The notes under the pieces: model-generated
What the model was told of the DNA's origin: nothing
What the model saw: only the letters and a program-made list of their open reading frames with translations
Database searches by the model: none
Translations under genes and position numbers: made by a program
Assembly: GCA_045837725.1 (NCBI GenBank)
Contig: JBEWZL010000013.1
Span: 248,001-312,000 of the forward strand
Source of the DNA: Vermamoeba vermiformis
Taxonomy: Eukaryota
DNA: 64,000 bases
Reading direction: 5' to 3'
Part shown: piece after piece, positions 10,371-57,500 of the stretch
How positions within the stretch are numbered: position 1 is the stretch's first letter
Layout of the letters: each line of letters begins with the position of its first letter

Positions 10371-11863
10371 ATGAGCACAGAGAGCGCACAACACATTGCA
10401 CCTATCAGCGTGCTCGTCGAGACACATGGTCGATATATAGCACTCGCCAGCAACAAGCACTTGTTCGTCGCAGATCTGCAGTCCAGTGCAGTGCGCGCAT
10501 TAGACGGACACGAGAGTGTTATTCGCGCAGCATATTGGTACACAGCTCCTGGCGACACTCAACCCAGCTATTTAGTGTCGGGGGGCGATGACAAACGACT
10601 CTACGTGTGGAACTGCGCAGATTGGTCACGCAGCGAACCTGTGTAAGTGGTATTTATTATTATAGTCATCAGGGGCAATAATATATTCGCTATTATTTTA
10701 AATATCACTTGTCGTCGATTTGTAGATATTATTATGCTATTTTTCTCATAATCCCCTGCTCACTTATCACTATTAATCGCATTAATGCACGCAAGGTTCG
10801 CTTCCAAGAAGATCACCAGTGTGGCTATGACGGGCAGTGGTGCGGAGCGACAAGTCATGTACGCAGACAAGTTCGGCAATGTCTACAGCTATCCCCTCAC
10901 CGCGCACAGCTCTGTTGCTGCACGTACTGCGCGTCGCGTGCAAGTGAGTCAACTGCCCGCGCAGCAAAAGACCAAAGAGGGCAGCGACGAGGACGAAGAG
11001 AGCGCTGATGGCCTCACACTGCTGCTCGGACACTTCTCGTCCATCACCAGCCTCGCGCTCGATCACAGCACGCAGCACATTGTCACTGCTGATCGCGATG
11101 AAAAGATTCGTGTCTCGCGCTATCCCAATGCCTACAACATTGTCACCTTCTGTCTCGGACACACGCAGTTCGTCAGCAAGGTGTTGGTGCCACACTCCAG
11201 TCACGTGACTGTGCCGTGCGTCATCTCCGCGGGAGGTGATGGCACCGTGCGCGCATGGCACTTGACCGCTGGCACTCAATTGGGCCAGTTCAATCTCGCC
11301 AGTGTGAATGTCACGCGCAGTGATGCGAGCGAACAAGAGGTGCGTAATTGCTTGATTGACACGTGTCACATGCTGACTGACACTCGATTGCAGTTGATAG
11401 TGTCTGACTTGAGTTATCACAACAACTCTGGCTTGTTAGCAGTCTCCATCGAAGGGTAAGAGCTAATAATACGCACCACTCACTGACCACATTCAGATCA
11501 CGTGATGTGTTGGTGTTGCGCGTGAAACAAGTTGAGCAAGCAGTGCAATTTGAACTCACAGAGACCATCAAACACGACAGCGATGTGTACGTGGTGACAT
11601 TCAATCAGCACAGCGATCAGTTGTGGCTCGGAGGAGACAAGGACAGTGCGAGCTCGGCTGTGGCAGTGTATCGCATGACAGCTGAGGGCAAAGCAGTGCG
11701 AGAGACAAGCAACGCAGCGGCACAACAGATCAATGCAGCACTGAGTGGCTTGACCATCGATGCAGCACTGCACACACAGATCGTGGAGAGTGTGAAGCTG
11801 CGCCAGTACAAGAAGATGAGTCACAAAGAGAACAAGAAGCGGAAAGTGGAAGCCAAGCAATAG
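10371..11863 (+). CDS. WDR4: tRNA m7G46 methyltransferase WD40 subunit (Trm82/WDR4; spliced)
   Basis: ADKFGNVYSY, LLLGHFSSIT, IVTADRDEKIRVSRYPNAYNIVTFCLGHTQFVS, SAGGDGTVRAW. Confidence 0.93.
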
Positions 11864-11920
11864 CACTGTTCGTCGCATTAAATACATCGTGTTTATTTAC
11901 AGAGAGTGAGCACTACACTA

Positions 11921-13613
11921 TTATTTATTTACAATTTTGGCCCTCTTGTGCTTGGGTGCTTCCGGACTGCTCACTTTATCGATCGTGCGCTTCGTCTTAT
12001 CCTTCAGGTTTGGAGGCACGTGCTCGAGTATCATGTCCATGAACTGCGTCCAGGTGTAGTAATTGGACTTCTGACCCTCGAGATCATCGCCCACCAGCAC
12101 CATACTAGCCTCGCTCTCTTTGACACGCTTGCCCTTGCCGACTTTGAACAATATCTCCGCATTCTTCAAGTTGGCAGCGCCTTGACTGCCCGTGCTGAAT
12201 GAGCGGTGAAATGCAAATGTTTTGTCCTTCAGCGGTGCTTCTCGCAGTCGAATGCCGTACGAGTCAGGACTCAACAGCGGTGCAGAGGGGTTGGCTGCGT
12301 GTGCTTGCTGTGCATCGATCAGCCAATCGGGAGTGACCAGCCACTTGCACGTCAACACCGCTGAAAGGGTTTTCAAGGTGCGCGTGTGCGGTGGTGTGAC
12401 GACGTGTGTGATCTGGTGACTGAACTCGGCCGAATCGTGCACTTGACCCTTCATCACATCAACTACAAACTCGGTCAAGTTGTTCTTGAGTGCTTCGTTG
12501 TACTTCTTGCACGAGTCTTTGAACCCTGAGAATTGGACAATGGGACCAGACGCAGGCTCAGTGCGTGTGCTGGCACGCTTGGGACTGGCCAGTGAGACCT
12601 CATTCTTTGTGGGTGCTGCGTGCTCGTCACTCGCTGCTTTGTCTTTGTTGCGCACAGTGCTCGCGTCTGATTTAGCCGTGTCTGACTTGTGGCTTGCAGT
12701 GCTCACTGATTCGCGTGTGTTCGTGGCTGGTGCTTTGTCCACTTTGTTGCTCGTATCGCGCACATTGACTGCGTGTGTGGCGAGTTGCAGCGTGTTGATC
12801 GACTCCTGCAAGAGCTGTTTGTCGTGCTTCAGTGCCTCAACAGTCTTGTGCAGCTTGACGAGCTCTTCGCCGCGCTGTTCCCACTCGCGCTTGAGTTCTT
12901 GCAGCTGTTGCTGTAGCTCGTCAATGACATCGCACTGTCGGGCCTCGACTTCACTCAATGCACTCACGCGCGCTGATTTGTCGCGCAGTTCGCGCTGCAA
13001 GTTCTCCGCGTGTTGATGCAGTGCAGTGCGCTCCTGCTCCACGCTCTTCATGCGCTCTTCAACACCCTGCAGTGCTTCGTGTACTTGGCGCAGTTGTGCT
13101 TCAAAGTCACTCACTGCACTGCTCTTCTCGTGCAGTTGACGTGTGAGGTCGTCAGCGTGCTCGGTCTTGGCTTGTACTTGACGCGAGAGCTCTTCGACAG
13201 CGCGGTGCTTCTCGTCCACTTGCTGCTGCAGACTGCGTACGTCACTCAACAATCGATCGCGCTCTGTTGCGTGCTCTTGCATTAAACCTTGAAGCTTGCT
13301 CTCTAAATCTTTGATGGCATTGTCTTTTTCTTGCAGCTTATTTTGCAGATCCTCTTTAGAGAATAATAGCCGAGGGGGTCCTAAATATGGTTAGAGAATA
13401 TAAAAGAGCGCCGCAATTTATACCTTGTCCGTCGGCAGCTAACACAACATTCAAGAAAGTCTCTGAAACGATCGTCAATAAAAAATAAAGCTCATGCTAT
13501 TTTGACTTACTCTGATAGCGCTCTTTTAGTGCCTCTATCTCGCGTGATAGCTCAGCAATAACACTGAGGTGAACATCTTTGGGTACGAATTGATCTTCTT
13601 CTGTGGTGTTCAT
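11921..13613 (-). CDS. Coiled-coil protein with C-terminal BRCT domain(s) (spliced)
   Basis: Long heptad region, then VQFSGF...ITHVVTPPHTRTLKTLSAVLTCKWLVTPDWLID (BRCT signature). Confidence 0.8.
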
Positions 13614-13722
13614 GTTGCATTGGCGTAAACAAAGAAAAATGGCACAAGAAATTCCCAGAAAACACCGTGGATCGCGATCAGCAAAAATTAATACTGAGGA
13701 ATATTAGGTTTGTTTATTTACA

Positions 13723-16700: not shown

Positions 16701-19700
16701 GCGGTACCACAGCTTGGGATCGAGGTGCGGGTCAGTGTTCGGGGCATCGATCGCGCGCAGACCTGCAGTCACGTGCTCCACACTCGCGGCACGGTACTGA
16801 ATGGGCAGACCCGTGCGATTGACGAGCCAGTACTTGCTGTACACGGACACGGTGCGCGTGCCTGACACTGCGTAGTCGAGCGCGAGGTGCAGAGTGCGCT
16901 GCTGATCGTCGCGCAGGGCCAGCGACTGGTCGGGGGTGCGCGTGTTGTTGATGGTCGCCCACGTGCTCCATGCATAGCCCTCAATCTTGACGCTGAGCTG
17001 CAGTTGACGCATGGTGGCACTGGTGCAGAATATCGGCACCAACTCCCCGCGATTCACGCACTGCTCCACGAGCTCAATGTGGCTGCGTGCGTCGCGGAGT
17101 TTGAACCACATCAGCGCGGGCAACAGATTCTCGACAATCACGTGGGGCTGTACCACGATGGCAATGTTGTTTTCACTGAACGCGGTCAGTTGCAGCACGC
17201 ACTGTGGCGCAGAGATGTACACGGAGACAGGCACGTGATCGACTTCATCGGGCTCGATCAGCGCACTTCTGTCGCGCAGTGCTGGATCGGTGAGTGGTGT
17301 CAGGGCCAGCACCGCACTCTCCTCGCTGAGTGTGTCGCGCATCACTCGCTGTCTGCGCGCCTCTTGGATCACACTCAGCAGCTCCCACACACTCAGACTG
17401 CCCTCGTCGTCCACTTCTGCCTCGAGATCTACATCCAGATAGCGCTCGCTGCTGTCCTCCTCGTGCTCGCTGTCACTCACCGTGCTGTCCTCGCTCACCG
17501 ACACTGGACCGCGCTCACGACGACGACCGCGCTGCTCGAGATCAGCGGCGTTGTTGACGAGATTGTGCTGCAGTGTGACGGTGATGCGCGTGTCATCTTG
17601 CAGCAGCAGATCGAGGGGCACGGGCCAATCAGCGAGGGGTGCCAGTGTGCGCGAGACAGTGCCGTGCTTGGCACTCGTCAAGTACACCGCTGCTGGGGTG
17701 TAGCCGACTGCTGTGGACGAGGGCAGACCATTGGCAATGCGTATACCTGTGCGCAGTCGTTTGACACGTGTCATGCGCGTGGTGTCACGTGTCACAGATT
17801 CGGCGGAGCTGTTCTCGCTGTCCACCGTGAGCATGCCCCCGCGTCTGCTGAGCGAGTAGTGCAGATCAGCGGCGTAGTCGTGCCAGTCCTCCCACAACAA
17901 CTTGACGCGATGCGTGTTCTTGGGGTGTGGCGATAGTGTCAGGGCCAGGGCGGAGTGCAGCGCCGAGTAGCGATTGGTGAGCACAGGCACGGCGTGATAG
18001 GGCTTGAAGGGCGTGACTTGCAGTGCGAGGGTGAGCTGTGTGTCGTGCGAGCCAGTCTGCGCCAGTGTCACCTCGCTTTGATCTTTGAGCTCGTGCACCA
18101 CGGTGCTGTGGCCCCATTTGATCGCACGACCCACCGCATTGCGCAGTGCGAGTGCTGGGGCACGACCACGTGATCGTGGGGTGCGTGTGGTGTGCTGGAA
18201 TTGGCGCGAAAACAGCGAGGCGAGCACTTCAGCAGCACGCGAGGCTACTTGCACGAGTGGCTGCGAGACTGCGAGGGCGACAGGATCGGCGATGCGACAC
18301 TGCGCGGTGGTGCGCTGTGCGTGCTGCGTGAGTGCGAGTGCTGCGGTGAGGGGGTGCAACAACGACTCCCACTGCATGCTCTGCGGATTGAAGAAGTTGC
18401 ATTGCACTCCCACGCGTGCTGTCACTTTCATGTCACCGTGCTGTCAGAGTGCTGGTCAGTACAGTCACGTGACACCACATTCACTGAAACAAGTACTTAC
18501 CAGGGTGAGGTGCAGGGTGACGGGATTGAGACTGCACTCGATGAGGGGCAGCGAGAATGTCTGGCCAATCAAGCTGTCGTCAATCACTGTCAGCTGCACA
18601 TTGGACAGCACCACGGTCAACTCCACGCCACCGCTGTTGGGGGCCGTGCTCTTTGCATCACGTGGTGCGGGGGGTGTGGCACGTGACTGCGCATGCGTGA
18701 GCTGTGCGATGAACGGTGCTGTCGTGAATGCTGTCGCGAGCTGATTGAACAGCACCAAGTCCTGTCAAACGGCCGTCAGTACTGCGTGTGACACGTGTCA
18801 AACAGCGTACCATGAATGAAATGCGCAACAAGAGGGGCTGTGCTGTCACTTCAGCACGTGACTCGTGAGCTGTGAGCTGTGCTGTCGCTACTAGCTCGAA
18901 GGGGTCGAGCAGTTGTGAGCGTTGAACATCGAAATTTCCTTCCTGCGTTGCAAGTGGTGAGTGACAGGTGTCATTCTGCCGACTGATCAGCATTACCTTA
19001 TTTAGCAAGTCTAACAGCGCGAGATCGGTGTGTTGCAGCAGCGCATGCACGTGGGTGCCAGTGGCATTGAGCTGCACGGATGCCACCAGATCTGTTTTTA
19101 GCGACAGCACTTTGACACTGCTGCTATTATTAGCTTCGCTGTTCTCGGGCACTGTCAACTCCAATTCTTTCACGACCACTTCAATCTCGCGCGTGCTGAT
19201 AACACGTGACACTGACGTGGGATTGACACGTGTCACTGGCTCGCTAGGAGTGCTTGGAGTGCCAGGTGTCAATACAGATGTCAAGTTGAGTACAGGTGTC
19301 ACAGAGTTCTGCACAGTGGTTAGTTCACTGAACGTACTCGTGTCAAACAGAGACTTACAACGAGGCGTGTCAACGTGTCAATCAAACATACTGCGCGCAG
19401 AGGCATCACTTTGACACGCACCTCCAATCGATCGAGCAGGGCACTCTGTGATTGGTGCAAGTCAAGCTGTATCAGAGGCTCGCGACTGGTCACGTGATCG
19501 GCCCGTCTGCCCAACACGGTCACGTGACTGGCTGGGCCCAACAGCACCAAATCCTCCACGTGCCGCTGATGCGCGGTGATCTGAATGGACTCGACAGCAG
19601 CGCGCACGCGTGTGTGAACTTCACTTTGATGTGGATCTTGATCCATAGTGACACGTGCTGTCACTTGTTGGACAGCACACGTGGTGACGCACTGATTGGC

Positions 19701-22700
19701 ACCGTCAAGCTTGACAGCTAATTCTTCGAGGTGCACAAAGAGTGCCACGTGTGATTCAGTGACAGGTGCACGTGATGCTGACGTGTCAGGAGTGACAGCT
19801 TCAATGTGAGTGCTGGATCATATTTGCATTGGCAGATTGAGGCGTGTGTGAAGTTGGAGCGCGTGACTGATGTCTGTTCCATTCACTGAACAACGTTGCG
19901 AATACATCGCATATTTGCTGATTTACTGCAAATATTACTGGAGACACTGTACAACGCACCTGCAAATGAAGGTTGTTAGTCCGGAGCTCCTTGACAACAC
20001 GTGACTTACTGTGAAGTGCGGCGTGGTGAGCACGTGACGCGAATAGACGCGCTCGACAGCAGCGACTACCGCGAGATTTGAGATCACGTGATGCGTGCCA
20101 GCATCGAGGGCGAGCAGTGGCTGATAGGTGAGTTGACAGCCAGTCCACGTGACGTTGATGGTGTCTAGCAGATCACGTGCCTGGCCCTCCCTCCAGCGCG
20201 AGGTGTTGAACAGCAGGAGATCTCCGCCAGTGAGCACGAGCTGACCAATCACATGACGCTGTTCGTTGCGCACCAACACCACGAGTTCGGGAGCCTCGAC
20301 GATGATCTGATACTTGGGCACTGCGCGGACTGGGTGAGCTATTTTTAGAACACGACGGTACTCGACTTACAGTGACGTGGCACTTGGTGTTTGACCGGGA
20401 CTGGCGGGGCTGGTGGCAGAGTGTCACTGACGACAGCGACATCACGTGACTGTTCCACCACGGGCACTGCAGCGGTGAGGTGCGCGCTGTAGCTGAGCAG
20501 TGCTGTCACGTACTCGAGATGTGCTGTCACACTCAACTGCTTGACATGAGCACGTGATTGGCAGTTAAGGGAAAAGGAAGATAAAAATAGAACGGTGTTA
20601 GATGTTTCTATTCTAAATAAGGATATGAATGAGCGGATTGGCGAGTTCGCGAGGATTGCGCAAGTGAATCAGATTGAAATCTACCCACGTGAGATCGTCA
20701 CGTGACTTGGTCAGCACCACACGTGGTTCACTGGCCGTGCAGTCCATCACGCGGAGATTTCCGATGTAACCCTGGCATCAACGATCAGCCTCAATGCCCC
20801 TAATAAGGCAATATCTTACCTTGACGCGCTGATACTCCGCTTTGAGATCGATCTGAGCGGTGACATCGTGCAGTGTGACAGTAGTGACAGCAGTACGCGT
20901 GTCATCGAGTGCTTGAATCACCACACTGGACACGTGCATCAACACCTGTGAGTCACGTGATTAGTAGTGTGACACGTGACACCTGTCATTGCACGTACCT
21001 TGGAACTCAATTCTTCTGACTGCGCGGAACTGGCACGTGATTTCTTTGCTGGCACTGCTGGCACATCACGCGGGACAGTGCTGGCAGGGGGAGTGAATGC
21101 AGCGACTAAATTTAGCGCATTGGTGACACTGGGTGGCACAATGCACAGCGTGAGAGTGCCGAGCGTGAGCTTGACAATGTGTGCCACGCCGTTGTAGCGC
21201 GGTGAACTGCTGTCAATCACGCGCACGTGTGCTGTCAACCACTCGGGGTGTCCGTGCGTGTGCAGCCAGTCACCGTGCTGGCCGTCACTCACGCGCACCT
21301 CGCGCAGCAGCAGATTGGCCGTCAACTCCCCCTCACGTGCCAGCACTCCGAGCATCACGGGCCCGAGATACACTCGGAGATTGCGCGGAGATTTATCATC
21401 ACGGAGCTGTATCTCCACCCCCGCGAGATCGAGCGTGCACTCTGCTGTCTTAATCAGCTCGTACTCGCTGAGTGACAGGTGTCAGTGACATGTCAAACAG
21501 CGTACTGCACGGGACGTACCTCTTGTCAATGGCGCGCTCGTCACTGAGCTCCTCTTCGTCCTCGCTGGCACTCTGATCGGCATCCACGGCATCGTACAGC
21601 TGCAGAATCGTTTCGTCCGTTTGCAGCACCGTCTCGTCCAGTACATTGCCGTTCACTGAATCGATGCTCTCGTTCACTGAAGGAGCTGGCACCAAGTCCT
21701 GCATGAGCGGCAACAATTGGTGAATCAGCTCGGGTGTCACGCGCACACTCAGCAGCGACACTGAACTGCGGGCCCTGGTTGATTGGTGGTGGTCAGTATT
21801 TGACACGTGTCATACAGTGCACAGTACTTACTTGACACGTGCTTGTGCAGCACTGGCCAATGTGCCCAAGAAGATGTCAGCAGTCACGTTGAGGGGCTGC
21901 AGCACGGTGTGGATGTGCGGTGATTGACGCGCATTGACAGCTGTCACGGCGGTGACATGGATATCGTCCCAGACCACACTGAACTCATTCGCACTCGTCA
22001 CACTGCTCGTGTGTGCAGCGTCCTCGTTGTGTTGAGCGCGAATGTGGCCCAGTGCCACCGTCAATTCGCACCGCGCACCGTGCTCCGTGCCATGTGCCAC
22101 CACGATGCGCGGCAGGGCAACATCCACGTCACAACGCACGTGCAGTGTGCTCGACTGCTTCATTTGTCGCTCCACGTGACGGCGAGTGCGTCTGCCGATG
22201 CGCTTGAGTTGATACTTTGCAGCAATTTCAATGTGTTGTATGGAGGGCGTGTGATGACGTGTCAACATGCCAGTGAGGGCGTGCAAAATATCTTTGTCCA
22301 CGCGCACTTCGAGCGGTGTCAACAGCAGTGTCAGATCGTAGTCGTTGCGATTGGACTCCACGTGACAGGACAGCAGTGGTGCACTGTCCAGCATGCGGAT
22401 CAGTGGTGTCACGTGATCGGGATGCAGCAGTGACGTGGCCTCCACGGTCTCGAGCTCTGCGTGCAGTTGCACACCACGTGCGCGGTGATTCATGCGCACT
22501 ACAAACTCGCGCAATGCTACGGTACACACGGGTCCAGTCACGTGACTGAGTGTCAGGCTGAGCAGTGGCATGCTCAATTCGACACGTGCATCGATCCAAT
22601 CCGCGGGCAGCTGATCACGTGACACTGGTGCGGTGTTGGGCTGATATTCAATCGTCTCCAAGAATTCTTTGCGCATCTCTTCGGTGATCTCCACGCGAGA

Positions 22701-24454: not shown

Positions 24455-24727
24455 TCTTTAAATATTTATATATTATGCTATATGTCTCATCTTCTTCGTG
24501 TAGTTCGTGTTGACGTGAATGATGTCAGCTCCGCTCTCTCTGAACTCAATAGCACGTGACTCGGAATTTCACATCACGTGACGTGTTGATTTGTTCTGTC
24601 TGTGGATCGGATTCGCGGTATTGTCGCCTTGCACTGACGAAGACTAACACTAGAGCTACATACCATAGCGCTTCGTCTGGTGCCTGTTGTGGAGTCCAAA
24701 AATGCACTGCGCGTACTGACCACAACA

Positions 24728-26287: not shown

Positions 26288-26856
26288 TGTACATAAAACC
26301 ATTTCGTAAATTACGTTTAAATTAATCATTGAAGCAATCATGTACCATTGGTGGATTCAGCTTGTGAGTGTCCCACGTTGCTGGGAGTTGCAAGGTTCTA
26401 ACCCACATATTTCAACCAGTTACTGGCTTGCCACAGTAGCCAGGACATTTACTACCCTGGTGTACATAGAGACAGCTGATTCCAACTCAACAGAGGGTTC
26501 AGGCTGCTGGTAGGTGGACGTCCCGTCCGCCAAAAATTTTTCGTCTGTCCGGGGTCGCTGCGTGAACTGTAAATTCAAAAATTGCAGTCACTCAATATTT
26601 TTGATGATTACTTGTATCATTTGTTATATAGCGATAGTGCTAGGATTTTCGTTTAAAAGGTATTGCAGCAAATAGAACAAAGTTTTAGTCTTAAGTTCTT
26701 TGCAGAACATTGCTATTTTCAGCCTCTGGCGTTTAGCCCAAAGGCGTCCTGATTCCAATGGTAGGCTTCTTGGGCCACTGATGCAATGGCAGAGTTTGGT
26801 ATAAGGTCAATTACTAAGGAGGTCGACCTGTCCTATTAAGACATGGTGTCCGTCCG

Positions 26857-26906
26857 GGACAAGGCATCCATCCGTGGACAGGCATCCGGGTCCGGACAAG
26901 GCATCC
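26857..26906 (+). repeat. Three copies of GGACA(A)GGCATCC
   Basis: Copies at 26857, 26876 and 26894. Confidence 0.85.
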
Positions 26907-27784: not shown

Positions 27785-29413
27785 TTAGTTTTTGTTATTT
27801 ACAAGCATCAGTTTCTGTTGGTACCACAGTTGTGCTTTTTTCTTAATTGCAGGCTCAACTTGGTCCCAAGACAATTTACTGGCCTCTAACTCAGCCTTGC
27901 CTTCTTTTTTCACATCTTTCACGATCCACTGCACAAATTGATTGGTTTTTTCGCGCACCACTTGTCCCTTGCACACCTCTTCAAATCCTTGTTGCAAGCG
28001 CTGTTCAGTCACGAACATATTTGCGTAGTCTTCTCCGTCCTGCGCTACTTCAGGATTCAACAAGATGAGTGCTGCTCCATCAATATTATTAGCTACGGAT
28101 AATCATAATCGCCCAATTTGTACAAATACTCACCCTCTTTCTCACCGCGCTTGTGCTTCACCATGGCGTGCGAGGGTCCCTTGGTCTTGAACAGCGTGTC
28201 GCTCAGCACACGCATCGTCGCTGGCTCAGAGCTCTGCACGGGGTACCACACCAGCCCCTCGCCCACACCTTCGATGCCGAACTCTTCGCGCACCCAAGGG
28301 TCCGTCTTGTCAATGGCAATCACGTGCTCTGTCAACACCTGCACCACGTGCTCGAGTTGTGTCACGTGCTGGAAGTCGATGCTCATGGGCTCCGTGGCCC
28401 AGGGGATGATGTAAATGTCGTGCGTGAGGTCCTTGGTCTGGTGCTCGTTGTCGAACAGGAACTGCGACAGATCACGTGGCTCTACAATCACGTGCTCACC
28501 GATCTGCACTGCAAAGACTGCAAAGATGTTCTTGGTCAAGCTGCAAATGGCCGCACCTTGCATGATGCCCTTGCCGCACCATTCACCGAACACGATCACG
28601 TCTTGGCCCTTGACACGTGTCACATGTCGCTCTACCAGGGCACGGAAAAACTGTTGCCGCGCCTCGACAAACTGTCTGAAGCCGTAGTGTGTCTTGTCGG
28701 CCCAGAGCAGTTCGTTGCGCGACTGGGCGTAGATCTGACCGCGCTGCATGTTCACTGCGGCATTCGAGCCGTGCACTGCAGAGCCCCATTAATAGCAGAA
28801 CAAGTATATATTGCGTGCAGTGACAGCGACTAGTAGTGCCCGCACGCAGCGTGTAGCGACACTTACGCTTGATCTTGGCGCGGTACGTGAGCTGTGCTAG
28901 GGGCTGGTCAGCGAGTCTGTGGCGCACGTTGTGAAAGAGACTGATCTCAGGCCAGGCATAGAACACTGCTGTAGGCTTCTTGGACTTGGACTTGACTTGC
29001 TGCAGCTTCTGTTGCAGATCGAGATGGGGGTACAGCCGTTGATAGCCTTGCGCCACCAGCCATGGAATGCACTTGAGAAATTGCTTTTCAGCGTTGAACT
29101 CGCAGAATTCAGGCGGCATGCTGCACTCTGTGATTTGAGAATTGCTTGAGAATTGGATCTGAGAAAATTAAATAATTTTGTAATTTCATTGTGAATAGCT
29201 AATCAAGCGTAAACGTAATATTCTATAAGCATAAAAATGCATTGATATTCTAATATTACCAGGGCAATAAACAGTGGTGAGTGGATATTGGGGATCTTTT
29301 GGCAGAGTGCAGATCCGCTCTTCAGAATCAGAGAGCTCTTGATCGTCAGCTGCGATGTTATTATTGTTCGTAGTTTTGTCCTCTGCGGTACTAACAGTGT
29401 TTGTGTTGCTCAT
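27785..29413 (-). CDS. Fusion protein: DENR/Tma22 N-terminal Zn domain plus Rnl2-type ATP-dependent RNA ligase (4 exons)
   Basis: GT-AG introns 29259-29128 and 28866-28776 restore YPLTTVYCPECSMPPEFCEF...KCIPWL and ligase motif I KIKLHGSN; further motifs QSRN, FGEWCG, FAVF, EGLVW, FKTKG and C-domain VTEQRLQQG...KDVKKE. Confidence 0.88.
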
Positions 29414-40569: not shown

Positions 40570-40642
40570 GCAGTCCTCACTCCTCCGTGTCAAGGGGGCA
40601 GTGCTCACTCCTCCGTGTCAAGGGGGCAGTCCTCACTCCTCC
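40570..40642. repeat. 28 bp tandem repeat, ~2.6 copies
   Basis: GCAGT(C/G)CTCACTCCTCCGTGTCAAGGGG at 40570 and 40598, partial copy at 40626. Confidence 0.9.
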
Positions 40643-45103: not shown

Positions 45104-47190
45104 TTACAGGAAGTTGAGGTCAGTTTGATACAATCCAATCGCCATCAAGCAGACTTGATCGCGTTTGAACGTCGCATCTGTGATAAAATCTTCTTTGTTT
45201 GAGAACACAAACACCTTGTGACGCGTGGTGAGGGTGAAGAGCTCAGCCTGATCAATAATGCATATTAATACACGTAGTTGCGCGTACAATACCTACCTTG
45301 CCACTCTGATGCAAGTAGTACAACAGATTTTCACACTGTGCTTCAGAGCCAGGCCGCGGTGTCAATTTGAGGATGGTCTTGATGATGCTCGTGTTGGCAG
45401 CGATGGTTTTGACTGTGTTGATAGGCACCACACTCATCAGCTCCAGCTGTGCGGGCCTAATGTTCCTGTTAAACAACGCCGTCGTGAGTGGGATTCGACT
45501 TACATCTCGAGCTTGGGTCCAGAGACAGTGACCATGTCCAGCACGCAGATCAGTTTGTTGTGCTTGGTCAGTTCGAGCATTGGTGCTGCATTGAGGAGTT
45601 GATAGCTCTGCTGCACCTTCGACACTGTCAGCTCACTACTCGCAGGCTGAGGTGGTGGCGGTGGCGGTGCGCTGAGAGTGGGTGCGCTGAGAGTGGGTGC
45701 GGTGCTGGGTGGTGAATAGCGCTGCGAGTAGCGCATCTTGTCTCTGTCGGGTGATCTGTCGCGATAAGTGCGTGACGTGCGCAGTGGTGAGGGTGAGCGG
45801 CGGTGCGAGGAGTGCGGTGAGGGCGAGCGACGATCAGACCACGTGCGCGAAGAGTGATAGGGCGAGTGTCGCGAGCGCGGTGGTGAGGGTGAGCGGCGGT
45901 CAGGGGTGCGCGAGTAGAGTGAGCGCGAGTCTCGCAAGTCACGTGGCTTGTCTTTTTCACGCGAATTGCGATTGCGAGGGCGGAATGAGTCACGTGATCC
46001 GTCGTATGAACCACGTCCTCGGCCACGTCCTCTGAACCCTCCACGTGAAGGCGGAGGAGTGACGCGCTGTTTGAGCTCTTTGACCTGTGCATCGTTGTAG
46101 CCCATGTCGAACAGGTCCCACTCGTCCATGGCAGCCAGGCGTTCAATCTCCGCGCTGTCTGTGGGCAGTGAGAGCCCTGGCGCGACTTCTCCCTCGTCAC
46201 TGACACTCGGGGCAGGGAGTGGCACGGGCTCCACTGGCACCTGATTGGTCAGTTCAGCGATCAGATTGGGCGTGTAGTTGGGCAGGCGCGGGTCGAGTGG
46301 ATTGGTGTACACTGTGCTTGTCGTGCTGCTAGTGACAGGTGTCACCGTCGAGGGTTGTTCCGCGACAATGTTAATGTTGACACTTTTGACACGTTGACAC
46401 TTGCCGCAGAGACAGTACATGCGCGACAGCACTTGAATGTCGGGCTGACAGCTCGCGTGATAGGCCGCACAGCAGTCAAAGCAGTACAAGAGGGGCTGAC
46501 CGGATTTGGCGCCTTCACCGCGGCACACTTGACACACGTGGCGCGGACAAATAAATGTTCCGCTCTCTTTTCCTGTTTTGGTCAAGCTGTTGCTGCGCAC
46601 ACAACTCTCGTGATAAAATTTGCCGCAAATGAGCAGACAACACTTCTGCGGGGGCGAGGGGTCACTCGTGTCGTGACAGATGAAGCACGTGCGCGTGTTG
46701 TTGAGGCACTCGTTGCAGTAGTAGTGCGCGGTGTGATCTGGCGCGAGATTGAGACAGCTGCGGTGATAGGCACGGCGACAGGACCCGAGACAATATAGCA
46801 GATCTGTGTCTCTGCGACAAATGTTGCAAATATCATCGGCCTATTGTGGGTATAGAGGCATTAATAGGAGAGTTAAAAGGTTGTGTTAAGTACTCACTCC
46901 TGAAGGTGGATCTGCAGTACGTGCTTTCTTGTTCGACTCTGTTTCTGCTGGCAGTGACTCAACCTCCTAGACCAGAATATAGTTGAGTAATAGGGACTAA
47001 TAATAGGCCTTATTTGGACTCACCGAAATCGTTCGCTTGCGAGAATCGTTTAGGTCTGAAAAAATAATTAATATTTTATTAAAAATAATTCGCTAATGCG
47101 CGTAATCATCTTATTATAGCGCTGAAATGATATGAACACTTAAAAGAAAATATTTAGCGGATTTATTATCGAGTTTTGCGTACCAGACAT
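45104..47190 (-). CDS. Protein with NSD-type tandem PHD fingers, an RS/SP-rich region and a C-terminal globular (possibly SPOC-like) domain (spliced)
   Basis: ICNIC...YCLGSCRRAYHRSC...CFIC...CGKFYHESC...FICPRHVCQVC...CFDCCAAYHASC; RSPSP repeats; no SET domain seen. Confidence 0.8.
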
Positions 47191-47408: not shown

Positions 47409-48847
47409 ATGGCAAAACCAACTACCGGCGATGAAAATTCAATGAAAGGCAATGTAAGTCGAAAACATTATTATTACAGCACAATATTACAAATAATATA
47501 CAAGAAATTCAAATATTAGAACCATTCGTGTACCATAGCAGCAGTACCCCCGAACAATAATTCCCCGATAGTCTTAAATTTCCTCGCAGGACTTGCTCGA
47601 GCCCTTCAACTACATTGCCAGCTCGCAGAAAGAAGGCGACACCTTGCAGTCGCTGCTCGTCGAGGCATTCAACGCGTGGATGCAAGTGCCGCACGACAAG
47701 CTCGAACACATCAAGAAGATCGTCTTCATGCTGCACAATGCCAGTCTGTTGTACGTACTAGCGCACTAGTCCCTCCCTGGCCCTACTGACCGCAGCAGAG
47801 TGGACGACATTGAAGACGGGTCCAAGATGCGTCAAGGAGCACCTGGTGAGTCACACTGCTGCACGAATGATCTTTATTATTATTGCATATCTAATGACCC
47901 CTCGCACTAGTGGCGCACAACATCTATGGACTGCCGAGCACGCTGAACTGCGCCAATCTGGTCTACTTCATGGCCCTCGAACACTGTCTCAAACTCGATC
48001 ACAACAACAACGACAACTCCATGCGCGCCACTGCTGTCTTCATCGGTGCGTCGTGCTGATCGTTACTGTCTCATCTAACGGCGCTAACAGAGGAGTTGTT
48101 GAGTTATCACCGCGGCCAGGGCCAAGAGATCAATTGGCGCGAGAGTGCGCAGTGTCCGAGTGAGGAGCAGTACCGCGCCATGGTGATCGACAGTGCGTGC
48201 TTGTTGGGCACCTGTTGCGGATGTTAATCGTTGTATTCACAGAGACTGGTGGCATATTGCGACTTGGCATGAAATTAATGCAATTAATAAGTCAGGACAA
48301 CAAGTAGGTATTTCCATAAAAGGCTATTCCGTGCTTACAGCTCAAATGCGCAGAAATTACACGCCACTCGTCAATCTGTTGGCACTTTATGTGCAGCTGA
48401 TCAGTGACTACATTAATCTGGACTACAATCACCAGCAGAATGTCAAAAACAAGTCTGTGTGCGAAGGTGAGAGTGACACTTTTGATGACACGTGTCACAT
48501 ACTGACACGTGCGCAGATATCACAGAAGGCAAATTCTCACTGCCCATCATTCACTCTGTGCACCGCAATCCAGAGGATCATCGCCTCTTAAGTACGTCGA
48601 TGCAGAACTCGATTTGACACGTGTCAAAGTGCTTGTTAACAGTTTTATTGCAGATATTCTCAAGCGACGCACCTCCGACGAAGAGCTGAAGAAGTACGCC
48701 TCGAATCTGATTCGCACCAATGGGTCCTTTGACTACACGATCACGTGCATCGACCAGCTCCTCGCGGAGATTTCGCGTGAGATTTCAACGCTCGGTGGCA
48801 ACGATAAGCTGATGCTCATTGTTAAAAAATTGCGTGGCTCCATTTAG
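47409..48847 (+). CDS. GGPP synthase (GGPS1/BTS1-type) paralogue with degenerate catalytic motifs (multi-exon)
   Basis: [59 protein letters not shown]. Confidence 0.9.
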
Positions 48848-50550: not shown

Positions 50551-52403
50551 ATGACCACACAAGGTATATCTATACAATAATCTAATGCGAATGAAATATA
50601 TTTACATTGTTTGTAGCATTGATAGCGTGTTTGGATACACTTGACACCAATCCTACAAAGAATTTAGATCTCTTGTTCGAACTGAGCCGCGATCTGGTAG
50701 TGAGGTATTAATTTTTGATAAATAACAGCCACATCGATTCACGTACTAATATAGAATAGACAAGAAGCAGCGCGTCACAACACCATTCCAAAATTAAGCA
50801 CATTATTCAACCAATATTACCCTCTGCGCAATGCATCGAGTGACAATACAGCGCTGCTATTTAAAATATTGCGAGTCATGCGCAATTTGTGCGGTAATGT
50901 TCCTGAAACTCCGATCGCGATCAGGTTCGTTCGCTTCGTATGCATGTCGATCTGTTGCTTACACCAGTGCTAGGGACGCGCAAATATTAGAGCACAGCTA
51001 TCACCTGCTCGACGAATACACGCACAAGACAGCACTGAACGAGCACGACTATCTCTTGCTGCGCACTATCGTCACACTGCACTCGAACATGGTGATCAGC
51101 AGTGCGGAGATTAAGCGCGAGATTTGGGAGCGCGCAGTCAACTCGCAGCTGTACTGGCACGTGACACAGCTGGCACACACCCCACTCAATGCGCACATTG
51201 CGATGTGTTTGTTGAACTGCACCGCGACTGATGCAGCACTGCGGTATGACACACCGAGCCAGTCACAGTGAGGTACTGACGATTGACACGCAGAGAACAG
51301 CTCGTGCAAGACAAGCCAGCCATGCACTTGTTCATGAAACTGCTCGATCTGGCTGCTCACGAGACAGATGAACACGACAATGTGAACACGAGTGTGTTTT
51401 ATTGGACGTAAGTGTCGATCTACAGTGCTTGCTGTGGTGCAGTGTTTGACACGTGTCATTCAGATACCTCGTGTTTCAGAAGTTGCGCGACAGATTTGAC
51501 GAGTTGATGGTGCTGGCACGTGACACTGACTGGCACAAAACTGACCAATCAGAGGACAGCGAGCCCACGAGTGTCCGTCAAGTGCTGCTGCTCAAGTTCT
51601 TGGAAGCGAGTGTGGAGGAGTTGAATGCACACCCTGAACTGATGGACCACGAGCACAAAGCACGCATGTTGAAGTATTTGGAGCAGCGATTCGAGGAATT
51701 GGAGGCCAAGGAGCTGGTGTTCACGGCGCGGATCAAGTTCAGTGACGAGGCTCAGTTCAAACGAGATCTCGATGCATTATATTTAGTGGCACGTATTCTC
51801 AGTCACGTGCTCGAGTGTGCCAGCAGCGAGGAAAAAGAATTGCTGCGCACTGCAGGGCTGTTAATTACAGTCATTCGTAAGTGACGCGAAGAGAACTCTT
51901 ATCATCCGATTGACACGTGTCAAACAGGCATGTTCAAGAACTCGTTAGATCACGAAGCTGAACTAGAACGTGCGCGCAAAGAGACAGGCGTTGATTTGAA
52001 GCGCGAGAAGATGGCCAAGACGCGCATAGTGGAGGACGAGTTCAATTTCAAAGTGGAGCTGATGAAAATAGTGTGCAACATGTGTTATCGACACCGCGCC
52101 GCTCAGGATGAAGTGCGCGCATTGAAAGGTCTGCCAGCGATATTGAACCACTGCAACATTGACGACAACAATCCCTGTAAGTACTCGTCATATGATGTCC
52201 AGTGAGTGTGACTGATGCGTGCAGTAGACATCAAAGAATGGGCCATTGTGACGCTGCGCAACTTGTGCGAGAACAACGTGGAGAATCAAGAAGTGATTGC
52301 GAGTCTGAAGACACAAGGCATATTGGCCAGCGACGAGCTCGAACGATTGGGCCTGCAAGCCAAGCTCGAGGACAGCGGCAAGGTGACCATCAGCAAGAAG
52401 TGA
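50551..52403 (+). CDS. ATXN10: Ataxin-10 family ARM-repeat protein (spliced)
   Basis: RVMRNLCGNVPET; C-terminal FKVELMKIVCNMCY...QDEVRALKGLPAILNHCNIDDNNP/YIKEWAIVTLRNLCENNVENQEVIASL. Confidence 0.92.
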
Positions 52404-52626: not shown

Positions 52627-54109
52627 ATGACTTCAGTAGAATAGCAAGTGATCTATTTGCGCGATCCGTTTTAAAACAAAGCGCTAAATAATCTAATTAT
52701 TATTTTTAGCCGATTTCCCATGCCCTTATCTTTGAAAGAAGTAAGTCTAATTGCCAAACAATGCATTTTAACAATTTTAATAATTATTTTCTTACAGTAT
52801 TACCGAGCAAATATTTACTTCACACTGCGTATGAGTCGCGAACAAACATCTAAGGTACTGTCCATAACAATAATAATAAAGTGAGTATTTAAGTGAGCTC
52901 ACCCAGCCATTAGGGTGAAGGCATTGAATTTCTCGAGAATTCACCGTACAGCGATGAAAAGGGTCCTGGCTTCTACACGCACAAGATTGTGCACCTTGAA
53001 AAGTACGTGCAGTCTGACAGTAACAGTAGCGAGTGATTGCTACAGCAATCATACGTGAATTATGCGCTGAACTCATCACTCCCATTAGACGTTTGCCTGG
53101 CTGGGTGCGAGCGTTCTTGCCAGCCTCAGCACTGCGCATCGAAGAGAAGTGTATGTACTAGCAGCAGTCTTATTATATGACACTCGATAGTGCTGCACTG
53201 TACTGACGTGTTTCATGTAGCGTGGAAACAGTTCCCATTCAGTCGCACAGGTACGCCCCTAAATTGATGAATTTACACTCACTAACTGATATTTGCAGTC
53301 TATTCTGTAAGTATTACATGCAAGTCACATTTTGACACGTGTCATCTGATGACATTCGTGTCAGACTCCGTTGTTCGGTGACAAGTTGTTCGTCGAAGTG
53401 AAAAGCATCTACAAAGAGGACCGCGGTACCTCTGAGAATGTACGTGCAGTATAAAATATATATACATGTAGGATTAGCGCCATATGTGCTGGTGTTAATG
53501 ACGCTGTTAGGCACTGAATTTGAGCGAAGAAGAATTGAAGCAGCGCAAAGTAGAGTTGATTGACATTGCCAAATGTGAACGAGATCCGCGCAAAGTGAGA
53601 GTCATATGTGCAATATAAAGATATAGTAATAACAACGGCTGCATTTGTAGTACCGTCCTGAAGAAGATCCAACCACCTTCAAATCGAAGAAGACAGGTCG
53701 AGGTCCCTTGACAGATCCAGACTGGATTGTAAGTGCTAATGTACTAACATGCCTTGATTGTGACTAACATTCCTTCTGCAGCAAAAAACCAACCCCATCG
53801 TGTGTGCATACAAACACGTGACCGTTGACTGGAAGGTAACACGAGCTCACTTGTACTATCATCATAGTTCATTAACTGCTCGCACAGTACTCGTGGCTGA
53901 TGAAGTCGCGCATTGAGAACTTTGTGCACAGTCGCTTCTTCAAGGACATATTCACGCAGTCACACTTGAAGGCATTCTGTTGGATTGATGAGTGGTGGGA
54001 CATGACGCCACAAGACTTGGCACGTTATGAGCGCGAGACGAAAGAATTCCTCGAAAAAGAAATCAAAGACAAGCAACACCCAGCGGAGCCGCAAAAGAAG
54101 GCGCAGTAA
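52627..54109 (+). CDS. Phosphatidylinositol transfer protein (START-like PITP family; many short exons)
   Basis: EYRFPMPLSLKEY, GEGIEFLENSPY, GFYTHKIVHL, LPGWVR, EDPTTFKSKKTGRGPL, CAYK, AFCWIDEWWDMT. Confidence 0.93.
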
Positions 54110-54500
54110 CCTTTTGCTAGTGTGAATAATAAAGGAAACTATCAAGCACTCGCGTCATGTAAGTGATCAATAACCTTTTCGTATGCTGTAAATGAGATAA
54201 AAGAGAGAGGCTCCCTTCCGCTACAAATAATTCACGAGCACGTGATCAAGCACGTGACACGGAAAAAGATTTACACCGAGTCGGTCATTTCGTTTTTGCG
54301 CTGAATGGAAAGATAACGAGACAAGTGATCGAAACTATTTATTTGATTGATTATTATTATTGCTCTCGTAAGCTCTTTCCTGTCAGAACTAGGACAGGAC
54401 CCGCACTAGATCAACGAAAATAAGCAAAATTGTGAGTGAAGGACTTCCCATTTATTATTATAATTAACACGAATATCAGCAGAACCTATGAGTAATTGAA

Positions 54501-57500
54501 ATGGGCTTCTTCAGACAGTTTGTAACATTATTTTGGAAGAATGTCTTACTGTCTTTTCGTAATTGGAAGTCAAGCATAGCACAAATATTGAGTCCTCTAG
54601 TTATAGTACTATTATTACTCGGTAAGTATTATGTTTTCGCTTCGATTGATTTTTGAGCATTTCAATCGCTATTTTCGATATTCAAATAATTAATTACGCA
54701 ATATTTCCATAATTTGAAATCAGTCCAATAATGCTGCGAATAGGATTTCAACAAATCAGCAATGCAGTTTTGAACCAAGATATTTTGAATCCGGAGCCGC
54801 ACAATGTTGGGAAGATCCCTCAGTGCACAGAGCGAAATGGATTCCGCTGTTACAATATGTTATACGCACCTAAAAATGTTACTTGGGTCGATAATCTCAT
54901 GCGCGAGGTGAGTCCATCTGTCAGATCTGTTAACTGCATCCACGCTAACCGAGTGCCCCTCCAGCTAGCAGCAGCGAATGACGTCGATTTCAACACGAGT
55001 TATTCCGCGATGGGCAGTGGCGTGGTGGCAGGCGAGTGGACATTCATGCAGGACCACAAGACTATCTACGAGTACCTGATCAACAACCCCAACACCACGC
55101 AACATGCGCTCATATTCACGTCAGCCTATAGTTACGCTTCAGACGCTGAAATACCCCCTGAAGTGGGCTATGTCCTATTCTACAACTCCACCATGAAGAA
55201 CCCGCACGCCTTGGAGTTGATCCGCTCACTCGATCAGCTCGTGTTGGCCAAGAAATTGAACGTCTCATCCACCAGCATTGATGTGGCACTGAATTCATAT
55301 CCGAGGTACGCGTGTGGTTAATTACTATTGTACTGTATTGTACTGCTGTTGCTGACTGCTGTCTCAGGAAATTTCGCATTTCAGGCTACGACGTGGTGGC
55401 AGCGAATGGTGGCACGGTACGATCTAACTGATTATAGTACCATATTACTAACACGCTAGCACTTCAGTGGTTCTTCTTGGGTCCGATGGTGACCTTCTTT
55501 CACATTCTGACTGAGATTGTCGGTGAGAAAGAGTCGCGATTGAGACTCGGCATGCGCATGATGGGCTTGAAGACGAGTGTCTATTGGCTGGTCTGGTTCT
55601 TCACTGGCGCACTCTACATTCTGCTCGCCACACTCGTGCTCATCGGTGCTGGACTCGCCTGTCAATTTGCATTCTTCGTCAACTCAAATGTAAGCACTGA
55701 CACTCGCCGTGCTATGAACTCACCTCCCCTCGTTCTTTTGCAGATATTTGCAGTGTTCTTGCTGTTCTTCTTGTTCGGCATTGCCATGGTGTGCTTTGCA
55801 TTCTGGCTCAGCTCACTCATCTCGAGCTCCAAGACGGCACAAACAGTCGGCTATGCCATCATCTTGGTCGGCTTCGTGTTTCAAGCCATCATGTCCAGTG
55901 GCAATGGCGCACTCGTCGACATGTTGTGGGCTGATGACTTGCCGCCGTGGGTCGTGTTCGTGCGCTGGGTCCTCACGCAGTATCCACCGTTCAACTTCGA
56001 CAAGGCCTATGCAGACATTGCGTTCAAGAGCTCAGACACACTCAGCCTCAGCGAGGGGCGCATAGTGAAGGGCAAGGGTTTTGAATGGGATGACTTGTTC
56101 GAGGGTCGTGCCATTGATTTCTTCGGCACTCACGTACAAATCCCTGCGCCGATGCAACAAATCTTGTGGCTGGTCATCAACACAGCTATTTATGGCCTCG
56201 TCGGTCTCGTAAGTAGAACCTATCGTGCATTCTGACTCATTGACACGTGTCATTGGCAGTACCTCGACAATGTGTTGCCAGGCGAACACGGCTCACCGCG
56301 CCACTTGTTCTTCTTTTTAGACCCGTATTACTGGGGCTGGAAGAAGCCTAAGATCCGCATGAAGGACACTGAGTACGCAGTCATTTATTTATCTCTCTGT
56401 GAGTACAGCACTGACCTAGTGACAGCGCGGCACTGGAACACAATCGCGAAGACTTTGAGCGCGGTGAATATGACGAGGATGTGGAAGAAGAGGTGACACG
56501 TGCCATCGAAGACACCGACAACGAGTCAGCAGTGCGTGTCATGCAACTGACCAAGAAATACCGACACTACTTGTGTCTGCCCTCACAGCGCGATGTGACT
56601 GCCGTGGACAACTTGTCATTCACCATTGAGGAGGGCGAGATATTCTGTTTGCTCGGACACAACGGCGCTGGCAAGGTACGACATTTCCATATGTGGCAAT
56701 CACTACTGACAGCGCTGACAGACCACGACGATCAACATGTTGACAGGGCTGTTCACTCCGACGAGTGGCACGGCCTTCATCTACGGCCACAATGTGTTGA
56801 GTGAGATGGACGAGATTCAAAACATCACTGGTGTCTGTCCGCAGCACAACATTCTCTGGGATGAATTGACTGCGCGCGAACACCTCATCTTCTTTGCCGT
56901 GCTCAAGCGCATTCCGCCGATGCAGATCCGCGAAGAAGTGAACGACAAGCTGCATCAGATGGGCCTCAGCTCTGTCGCCGATGATCGTGTGGGCTCATTC
57001 TCTGGTGGCATGAAGCGACGGTACGTACTGTGACACGTGACATTGAAGGGGATGACTAACTGACACGTGTCACTATCAGACTCTCAGTAGCAATCTCCGC
57101 GATTGGAGATCCGAAGATTATTTTTATGGACGAGCCCACCACAGGTCTCGATCCCGTGCACAAGCGCGAGGTGTGGCACTTGATTGAATCGATCAGAAAA
57201 GAGCGCGTCATCTTGCTGACCACGCACTCGATGGAAGAGGCTGATGTCTTGGCCTCGCGCATTGCTATCATGTCTGGCGGCAAACTGCGCTGTCTCGGCA
57301 ACTCGCTGCATCTGAAGAGCACGTACGGCACTGGTTACCGCATCAACGCACTGCTCAAGACCACGGAGGTGTTCGCGCCCTTTGTAAGTCTGTCAACCAA
57401 TCATAGCGCAGTGATTAATATAGCCACAGATTGAACAACTCTATGCGCACTGGCCCTGGTTGAAAGGTCACGTGACAGGCTCACTCGTGCAGCGCAGTGT

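Follow-up and report, generated by a model that had tools for sequence, protein, structure and literature searches.

Why does one exact 12-bp palindrome recur in the introns and coding exons of several neighbouring genes, and what might read it? The question is raised by a 64,000-nucleotide stretch of Vermamoeba vermiformis DNA (contig JBEWZL010000013.1, positions 248,001 to 312,000; hereafter the window), in which a first-pass annotation had noticed many copies of the palindrome TGACACGTGTCA, which is centred on the hexamer CACGTG. We find that this 12-mer is the main form of a sharply defined family. It is probably a functional signal, because it recurs far above chance and is kept in a related species. 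We tentatively favour the view that a dimeric protein binds it as double-stranded DNA and acts within gene bodies. The evidence consists of this one 64-kb window, one orthologous contig of 5 kb and gene models built in the course of this analysis.

Copy number and anatomy of the palindrome

The window contains exactly 13 copies of TGACACGTGTCA, all of which had been noticed in the first pass. The expectation of about 0.004 copies under uniform base composition, given at that time, also stands (0.0038 when recomputed). Dinucleotide shuffles of the window contain a mean of 0.01 copies, and none of 100 shuffles reached 13. Markov models trained on the window predict 0.017, 0.019, 0.051, 0.13, 0.30 and 1.17 copies at orders 1 to 6, respectively. 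Within introns, the 10 copies observed compare with 0.01 in per-intron dinucleotide shuffles, and with 0.41 and 1.8 under intron-trained Markov models of orders 4 and 5. The bare hexamer CACGTG behaves differently. Its 133 copies compare with expectations of 16 (order 0), 40 (order 2), 70 (order 3) and 109 (order 4), so the hexamer is largely explained by its 5-mers, while TGACACGTGTCA is not. Low-order composition is thus ruled out as the cause of the 12-mer, although it accounts for much of the bare CACGTG.

For coding exons, we used two shuffling schemes. The first (300 shuffles) exchanges synonymous codons while keeping each protein and each gene's codon usage. Here CACGTG occurs 94 times versus 39.9±4.1 expected, TCACGTGA 21 times versus 4.8, and the 12-mer family described below 8 times versus 0.22, and none of the 300 shuffles reached the observed counts. 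The second scheme (60 shuffles) also keeps every dinucleotide count and is conservative, since only 45% of codons were moved; it yields expectations of 49.7±5.0 for CACGTG (94 observed), 5.5 for RTCACGTGAY (21 observed) and 0.73 for the family (8 observed). The family count of 8 in both schemes predates the reassignment of the copy at 18962 to an intron, after which 7 copies are exonic. When protein, codon usage and dinucleotides are all kept, the half-site TTGACAC or GTGTCAA occurs in exons 33 times versus 15.4. Codon-aware enrichment of the core words is seen in most genes, and outside VPS13 exonic CACGTG is enriched about twofold (43 versus 21.3). These shuffles rule out a protein-coding or codon-usage cause of TGACACGTGTCA, in agreement with the earlier claim that protein selection fails to explain the exonic copies. 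A loss of the enrichment under a low-order Markov or codon-aware background, which had been set beforehand as the refutation of the idea, was not seen for TGACACGTGTCA.

The 12-mer belongs to a discrete family, TGACA-SS-TGTCA, with 21 copies in the window and a spacer of exactly 2. Other spacers (0, 1 and 3-8) between TGACA and TGTCA occur in at most one copy each, and everted arrangements in 0-2. The two central bases are CG in 13 copies, GG in 5, CC in 2 and GC in 1, and are never A or T. Because both arms are perfect in the 7 copies whose centres are not self-complementary, self-complementarity of the whole word is not required. A central CpG is absent from 8 of the 21 members. The number of sites with zero, one, two or three mismatches to TGACACGTGTCA is 13, 12, 15 and 54, where an order-3 model predicts 0.02, 0.82, 7.6 and 51.7, and in 7 of the 12 single-mismatch copies it is the centre that is affected. 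The half-site extends to W-K-TGACA: of the 42 half-sites, 34 have A or T at position -2, 32 have T or G at position -1, and 2 have C there. Exonic half-sites are strand-symmetric (on the sense strand, TGACAC occurs 46 times and GTGTCA 40 times). The word GTCACGTGAC occurs 8 times in the window.

Words of the form CANNTG or CACGTG, known as E-boxes and G-boxes, are sites of bHLH and bZIP dimers, and the centres allowed by the core CASSTG are exactly those of classical E-boxes (CG, GC and CC/GG). However, among the 133 CACGTG sites, TCA flanks occur on both sides in 13 cases versus 2.4 expected, and mixed TCA/AY flanks in 3 versus 14.2. Since the flanks are not independent, TGACACGTGTCA is an all-or-none unit, as opposed to an E-box with independent flank preferences. 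Isolated TGACAC half-sites are also enriched, for which proteins that read E-boxes give no explanation, and most copies are intragenic. We therefore rejected an ordinary bHLH E-box, given the flank dependence and the fact that none of the 21 copies is intergenic.

The window also contains a second palindromic family, RTCACGTGAY, which resembles ordinary bHLH-ZIP sites. Its core TCACGTGA occurs 26 times, from 1904 to 57468, always with R..Y flanks (26 of 26). There are 21 exonic, 4 intronic and 1 intergenic sites, and 13 of the 26 are in VPS13. Unlike those of TGACACGTGTCA, its halves are roughly independent (26 observed versus 20.7). Intergenic CACGTG is enriched as well (15 versus 3.85); most of it takes the form AGCACGTGAY, and some is arranged in close pairs a short way upstream of genes. 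CACGTGAY boxes form intergenic pairs, at a spacing of 12 or 22 nt, at 24553-24580, 54239-54256 and 60999-61026, and one pair is located roughly 100-120 nt upstream of the predicted VPS13 start codon. These pairs, including the AGCACGTGAY pairs upstream of VPS13, look like ordinary promoter sites of bHLH-ZIP type.

Placement of the copies in transcription units

The window is a gene-dense eukaryotic stretch. Pfam matches include MMS19, an RFC1-like protein, VPS13, mitochondrial RNA polymerase, TYW1 and an ABC transporter, as well as Snf7, RNA ligase, a bromodomain, NSD-like PHD fingers, WD40 and a PH domain; an Rfam search of the window gave no match. The top match of the window's proteins is a metagenome protein with 94% identity, the next ones are around 50%, and the closest named matches are EukProt transcripts of Echinamoeba exundans and Amoeba proteus, which makes an amoebozoan of the Tubulinea type probable.

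Evidence of splicing was taken from spliced contigs of run X5, which are 99% alike to the window and whose 'RNA' label is the tool's guess. The 12 junctions used from X5 define very short GT..AG introns (41-91 nt). Together with nine long open reading frames (ORFs), they served to train a small exon/intron parser, of which the stricter version was used. The parser yields 19 predicted genes with 101 introns; it reproduces 11 of the 12 junctions, a circular result because those junctions were training data. We replaced one predicted intron by the RNA-supported intron 21775-21831, and added intron 18940-18996, inferred from its GTAATG...CAG form and from an X5 contig that starts at 18996. The resulting set comprises 102 introns with a median of 54 nt. 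Some gene models are wrong; for example, 19658-20688 is at odds with one X5 joint, and the relative described below shows good conservation there. RNA support covers part of the window, and the seven motif introns at 48-57 kb are predictions. Of the 13 predicted motif introns, 10 would cause a frame shift or an in-frame stop if retained. Two of the remaining three are backed by X5 contigs, and the support for the third, 56209-56259, is its GTAAGT...CAG form. Raw RNA reads of two further runs, X21 and X23, are mostly 90-95% alike to window positions 9001-29000 and offer little junction evidence; they share a species label with the best DNA holders, yet stem from a different strain or species.

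On these models, 14 family copies are in introns (14 of the 102 introns, which total 5.98 kb) and 7 in coding exons (approximately 40 kb), so that the density is about 13-fold higher in introns. The 17.8 kb of intergenic DNA and untranslated regions (UTRs) in the window, which are AT-richer, hold none of the 21. This zero is highly significant relative to the density in introns (about 40 expected) and not significant relative to the exonic density scaled by half-site frequency (about 1.3 expected). As had been proposed, most exact copies sit in short introns (10 of 13). The other three, at 17762, 19224 and 28611, are exonic, since unbroken spliced X5 contigs run across them. The family is spread over 10 of the 19 predicted genes across 57 kb, and is also present in the one orthologous contig. 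VPS13 (13723-24454) accounts for 8 of the 21 copies and for 63 of the 133 CACGTG sites (5.9 per kb, versus 0 to 3.3 per kb in other genes of the window). The 21 copies are as follows, the strand being given as a dot throughout.

11357..11368, strand., exact TGACACGTGTCA: intron 11340-11393 of a WD40 gene (+ strand); a spliced X5 contig skips this intron
17762..17773, strand., exact copy: large VPS13 coding exon (- strand), encoding M-T-R-V-K; X5 contig unbroken over 17415-18440; 12/12 in the relative
18789..18800, strand., exact copy: VPS13 intron 18762-18810 (- strand), 10 nt from the 5' splice site; an X5 contig has a loose end at 18762
19224..19235, strand., exact copy: VPS13 coding exon, encoding V-T-R-V-N; X5 contig unbroken over 18996-19308; 11/12 in the relative
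21801..21812, strand., exact copy: VPS13 intron 21775-21831, skipped in an X5 contig; 10/12 in the relative
28611..28622, strand., exact copy: coding exon of a - strand RNA-ligase-domain gene (Pfam RNA_ligase), encoding V-T-R-V-K; X5 contig unbroken over 28201-28728
48486..48497, strand., exact copy: predicted intron 48467-48516 (+ strand), whose length is not a multiple of 3
48615..48626, strand., exact copy: predicted intron 48592-48653 (+ strand), with an in-frame stop if retained; a 75-nt exon separates it from intron 48467-48516
51447..51458, strand., exact copy: predicted intron 51408-51463; ends 5 nt from the 3' splice site, and its TGAC may be the branch point of this intron
51911..51922, strand., exact copy: predicted intron 51877-51927; ends 5 nt from the 3' splice site
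53333..53344, strand., exact copy: predicted intron 53307-53364, in a weak gene model (adjoining 8-nt exon)
56241..56252, strand., exact copy: predicted intron 56209-56259 of an ABC-transporter gene (Pfam ABC_tran)
57061..57072, strand., exact copy: predicted intron 57021-57079 of the same ABC-transporter gene, which also contains a one-mismatch copy, at 57031 of this intron
299..310, strand., variant TGACAGGTGTCA: predicted intron 275-330 of a - strand PH-domain gene
9354..9365, strand., variant TGACAGGTGTCA: coding exon of a Snf7/ESCRT-III gene (+ strand); reverse complement of the copy at 9450
9450..9461, strand., variant TGACACCTGTCA: same Snf7 exon as the copy at 9354
18962..18973, strand., variant, TGACACCTGTCA on the sense strand: inferred VPS13 intron 18940-18996 (an exon according to the gene finder); 6/12 in the relative
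20977..20988, strand., variant: predicted VPS13 intron 20946-20998, 10 nt from the 5' splice site
21473..21484, strand., variant: VPS13 intron 21468-21519, skipped in an X5 contig; 4/12 in the relative; shares bases with a branch-point-like CTGAC that is 14 nt from the 3' splice site
21935..21946, strand., variant TGACAGCTGTCA: VPS13 coding exon; identical to the canonical TGIF1/MEIS palindrome; aligned 3/12 in the relative
46333..46344, strand., variant: coding exon of a - strand NSD-like PHD-finger gene (Pfam PHD)

The exonic copies had been described as lying in different frames. This proved incorrect: all 7 are read as xTG ACA SST GTC Axx and so contribute T-[R/G/P/A]-V to the protein. The alternative frames give a TGA stop or need Cys, so the single frame probably reflects tolerance by the protein. 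The distance between the motif and the 5' end of its intron ranges over 10-40 nt, and that to the 3' end over 5-31 nt. The earlier impression that it is often near the 3' splice site applies to 5 of the 14 introns, in which it ends 5-7 nt away, but not to the other 9, in which the distance is 19-31 nt. Motif introns avoid the 5' ends of genes: none of the 25 introns within 300 nt of a predicted ATG carries the motif, versus 14 of the 77 beyond (P=0.019). They also tend to be neighbours, forming 5 adjacent pairs versus 1.49 expected (P=0.007). They are canonical GT-AG introns, and their length is ordinary (median 55 nt with the motif versus 54 nt without).

Retention in a related VPS13 gene

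A single metagenome scan led to one contig (L001, 5134 bp) that is orthologous to the VPS13 part of the window at roughly 17614-22787, with 87% amino-acid identity in the matched part. The contig contains 3 exact copies, one variant with a TG centre and 30 CACGTG in 5.1 kb, which equals the density of window VPS13. In a global alignment, exons are 75.5% identical and the interiors of ten well-supported introns 43%. All five motif introns of VPS13 are present in L001, with or without the motif.

Against this background, the intronic family sites are matched at 12/12 (18789, inside an otherwise diverged intron), 11/12 (20977, where L001 has the exact CG form), 10/12 (21801), 6/12 and 4/12 positions, and the exonic sites at 12/12 (17762), 11/12 (19224) and 3/12 (21935). 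Only 1.3% of 225 background intron windows reach at least 11/12, which gives P=0.0017 for two of five intronic sites; for three of five sites at 10/12 or better, P=0.0002. A first retention test, in which all predicted introns served as background, was not significant (P=0.22); that background included mispredicted, conserved 'introns'. Near the equivalent of 21935, L001 has an 11/12 look-alike 9 nt upstream of the aligned position, as read by eye. Exonic CACGTG is conserved in L001 at 16 of 33 sites, versus 24% for all exonic hexamers. The retention of sites amid intron interiors that are 43% identical indicates constraint on individual copies, with turnover of others close by.

What might read the palindrome

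Starting from the observed anatomy, sharpness, location and cross-species retention of the motif, we infer that its reader is a protein on DNA, specifically a dimer of TALE-homeodomain or bHLH/bZIP type, which would work at the level of gene-body chromatin, transcription elongation or co-transcriptional splicing. We file the motif among iterated palindromic cis-elements or dimer sites. In the proposed mechanism, a protein homodimer would read the 12-mer as a discrete double-stranded cis-element made of two inverted TGACA half-sites, each extended to W-K-TGACA, with exactly two G/C base pairs between them. Selection would keep this element inside transcription units, mostly in short introns, as the only unconstrained sequence there, and also in the one coding frame that tolerates it; the element would stay off promoters and gene 5' ends. 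We give a DNA site for such a dimer less than an even chance of being correct.

Several observations favour this reading. The dyad is strict, with 21 copies at spacer 2 and 0-1 at other spacers. Non-self-complementary centres are tolerated and the halves co-occur, and exonic half-sites are both enriched and strand-symmetric. Sites are retained in the relative, and at L001 they also turn over nearby, as binding sites do. Motif introns, moreover, give no RNA-folding signal (see below). There is also a resemblance to a known site. According to PMC6158717, the canonical site of the TGIF1 homeodomain is ATTGACAGCTGTCAAT, on which two monomers bind the palindrome. The TGIF1/MEIS palindrome TGACAGCTGTCA also consists of TGACA half-sites in inverted orientation, 2 bp apart and flanked by A/T and then T (PMC6158717). 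All 21 copies in the window have this TALE-homeodomain architecture of inverted TGACA at a fixed 2-bp spacing, and the flanks match as well. The window's family differs in that its dominant centre is CG, not GC, that it occupies gene interiors as opposed to enhancers or promoters, and that its profile is far sharper than that of usual transcription-factor sites. No homeobox domain was matched among the window ORFs and exons scanned with Pfam.

Other findings weigh against a dimer site. About 40 copies would be expected in the intergenic and UTR DNA at intron density, and there are none. The absence of the motif from all 25 introns near predicted start codons is the opposite of what an ordinary promoter motif does. 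DNA binding alone does not predict this avoidance of 5' ends, promoters and UTRs. In addition, the mismatch profile is much sharper than is usual for eukaryotic transcription-factor sites, and the adjacency of motif introns is also predicted by RNA pairing.

This last point leads to the second serious explanation, which we regard as possible but doubtful, namely an element that acts as RNA. Copies in neighbouring introns would pair as a 12-bp duplex, or an RNA-binding factor would bind the word; in both cases the element would influence splicing, exon skipping or circularisation, the retention of introns or the fate of lariats. Such an element would fit the 13-fold excess in introns over exons, the lack of copies in intergenic and UTR DNA, and the clustering in adjacent introns. 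The self-duplex energy is -19.3 kcal/mol, and sharpness is typical of recognition by base pairing. Moreover, the GG/CC variants at 9354 and 9450 are exactly complementary, and form the cores of a 31-nt, 74% complementary inverted repeat (I14, 9349-9466, with a 56-nt loop). However, 7 of the 21 centres are not self-complementary, and the copies at 299 and 46333 have no complementary partner in their gene. The exonic copies are 73 to roughly 700 nt from the nearest intron, including the conserved copy at 17762, and exonic half-sites lack strand asymmetry. By hand count, the sense-strand flank pairs of RTCACGTGAY are G..T in 5 cases and A..C in 8, so there is no wobble bias. The listed spliced contigs of X5, whose coverage is low and which lack 11 of the joints, contain no back-splice or exon-skipping joint. 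Nor is there excess folding energy: the minimum free energy of motif introns has a mean z of -0.17, versus 0.08 for other introns (P=0.32), and we therefore rejected a local RNA hairpin in the intron.

The first-pass annotation had compared the motif to HIP1, the highly iterated palindrome GCGATCGC of cyanobacteria. As a description this comparison is apt, given a sharp iterated palindrome that occurs in coding and non-coding DNA, withstands changes of background model and is retained in a relative. Both HIP1 and the 12-mer are short, perfect palindromes that are sharp, over-represented by hundreds of fold, present in coding and non-coding sequence and retained between relatives, and, like HIP1-type palindromes, TGACACGTGTCA is exact and short and far exceeds what Markov and codon-aware models predict. 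The 12-mer differs in being eukaryotic and 12 bp long, in tolerating any G/C centre, in its concentration in spliceosomal introns and in its absence from the window's intergenic DNA. One could view it as a eukaryotic counterpart of bacterial genome words (HIP1, Chi and uptake sequences), actively maintained in transcription units of an amoebozoan-like lineage and read by a dedicated system, which strikes us as rather unlikely. If true, the word would be a gene-interior tag, with a specialised dimer marking or organising gene bodies, or else a set of pairing sites tying neighbouring introns of one pre-mRNA together, and in both cases a layer of gene-body signal would have come to light that had not been described before.

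A molecular drive of the HIP1 kind is unlikely. It would require a sequence-specific DNA enzyme system, for example a methyltransferase plus mismatch repair, or else a nicking or conversion activity, that writes or restores the exact word, so that the word accumulates wherever protein selection permits. The sharp, exact palindrome, the confinement of coding copies to a permissive frame and the codon-aware enrichment of the core in most genes, including CACGTG outside VPS13, are in line with this. At 21935, 9 of 12 positions differ in L001, where the exon is 75% identical, which looks like a multi-base replacement. However, under a neutral drive the word should be no rarer in intergenic DNA than in introns, whereas the window's intergenic DNA has none, and the orthologous retention of copies in diverged introns points to selection on single sites. 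Dependence on CpG is made less likely by indirect evidence: 8 of the 21 copies lack CpG, and CpG is not depleted in the window (rho(CG) 1.00). The centre variants CC and GG are transversions as opposed to deamination products, and no copy in the window has a TG/CA centre. These observations weaken that version of the first-pass proposal which involves methylation, deamination and repair.

A further suggestion of the first pass was that the TGAC of the motif resembles a branch point. The branch-point consensus is UACUAAC in yeast and YTRAY in general, while CTRAC is the canonical form in the window's introns. TGACAC might then be an extended branch site pairing with U2 small nuclear RNA, and the palindrome a special form of it. 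In CTRAC-AC, the pairing to U2 would be extended. TGACAC is strongly sense-biased in introns outside the palindromes (totals of 27 versus 15, with each palindrome adding one per count), CTGAC occurs in introns 31 times on the sense strand versus 4 for GTCAG, and in 5 of 14 introns the 3' splice site is 14-16 nt away from the A of the motif's TGAC. In 4 of the 14, there is no other CTRAY. The suggestion is partly supported, as the distance fits in those 5 introns. A separate canonical CTRAY is present in 10 of the 14, usually beside the motif, which itself ends 19-31 nt from the 3' splice site in 9. The motif half-sites almost always lack the C at position -1 (present in 2 of 42) that is the rule for branch points here. 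The GTGTCA half would have no role in a branch site, yet 11 of the 15 intronic GTGTCA are palindrome halves, and 7 copies are exonic. We therefore rejected the spliceosomal branch point as the identity of this palindromic motif, and consider even a branch-point-related signal very unlikely. The TGAC may double as a branch site in the 5 introns, which explains neither the palindrome nor the exonic copies.

That the word is a mobile-element or introner relic, left by terminal repeats or footprints in introns that were invaded or created, is extremely improbable: although 11357 and 48486 share 20 of 21 nt of context and 56233 and 57053 share 22 of 27 (families D3 and D4), most flanks are unrelated, repeat families reaching beyond the 12-mer (D3-D6, D9, D13 and D20) are 62-81% identical save one 95% pair, the palindrome is internal and contiguous instead of terminal, there are no target-site duplications, and the motif introns are of ordinary form and length and, in VPS13, all five are also found in L001. 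On these grounds, we rejected an origin from introners or miniature inverted-repeat transposable elements. The introners of Amoebophrya (PMC7789003) have 8-20 nt repeats at both intron ends plus direct repeats at the boundaries and spread as units; they are mobile and mostly non-canonical introns, and introners of Micromonas and Aureococcus are summarised there too. Inverted-repeat sequence in many introns is common to both, but the window differs in having a contiguous internal 12-mer, variable in position, within canonical GT-AG introns that are old and also present in the relative. The probability left after these five readings belongs to something that we have not considered.

We found no description of TGACACGTGTCA, or of an intron-concentrated exact palindrome in amoebae or other eukaryotes, in the main texts of the literature searched, and no genomic motif of such a kind among the matches listed for 'ACACGTGT' with introns; the papers matched by the exact 12-mer are Ebola-related and have nothing to do with the motif. 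The nearest printed intronic inverted repeats, the Amoebophrya introners, differ in every structural respect. Other intron-enriched signals at the DNA level act from transcribed sequence, namely plant intron-mediated-enhancement motifs, which are promoter-proximal, and the PATCs of C. elegans, which are periodic A/T clusters. The 12-mer, unlike the former, avoids the first 300 nt of genes and, unlike the latter, is an exact palindrome.

If the pattern is genome-wide, about one intron in seven would bear the same exact 12-bp palindrome, and selection would keep copies while the surrounding intron sequence decays. The word would then provide a cheap, sequence-defined handle on an intragenic process, whether a gene-body DNA-binding factor, intron pairing or a sequence-specific drive. 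The case also illustrates that a word may look like a branch point or an E-box without being one.

A group of uncultured tailed-phage contigs carries the 14-mer TTGACACGTGTCAA 2-9 times per locus (L064, L074 (one 31.7-kb IMG/VR contig), L072, L060, L062, L051, L014, L035, L056, L023, L030 and L079). Their genes are co-directional and encode a lambda-family portal, gpA terminase, capsid E, tail sheath and baseplate J. An ORF of at least 60 amino acids starts within 30 nt of 42 of the 61 copies, most often 3 nt away. The phage word looks like a gene-start-associated palindrome, such as a promoter or operator, and we judge it to be unrelated to the window apart from the word itself; a VPS13 query against viral contigs found no relative.

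Some properties of the window are more general. Its dinucleotide bias is 1.35 for CA/TG, 1.26 for GC, 1.00 for CG, 0.66 for CC/GG and 0.61 for TA. Across all predicted coding sequence, the hexamers CACTGC, CGAGTG, CGATCA, CGCGCA and GCTGCA are 2- to 3-fold more frequent than codon usage predicts, while runs of purines or pyrimidines, AGGAGG and TGCTCC among them, are under-represented. Between an exonic word and its reverse complement, z-scores correlate at 0.50. Finally, a long T-rich homopolymer stretch occupies intergenic DNA at 27282-27430, and a 28-nt unit is present in three tandem copies in unannotated DNA at 40570-40653.

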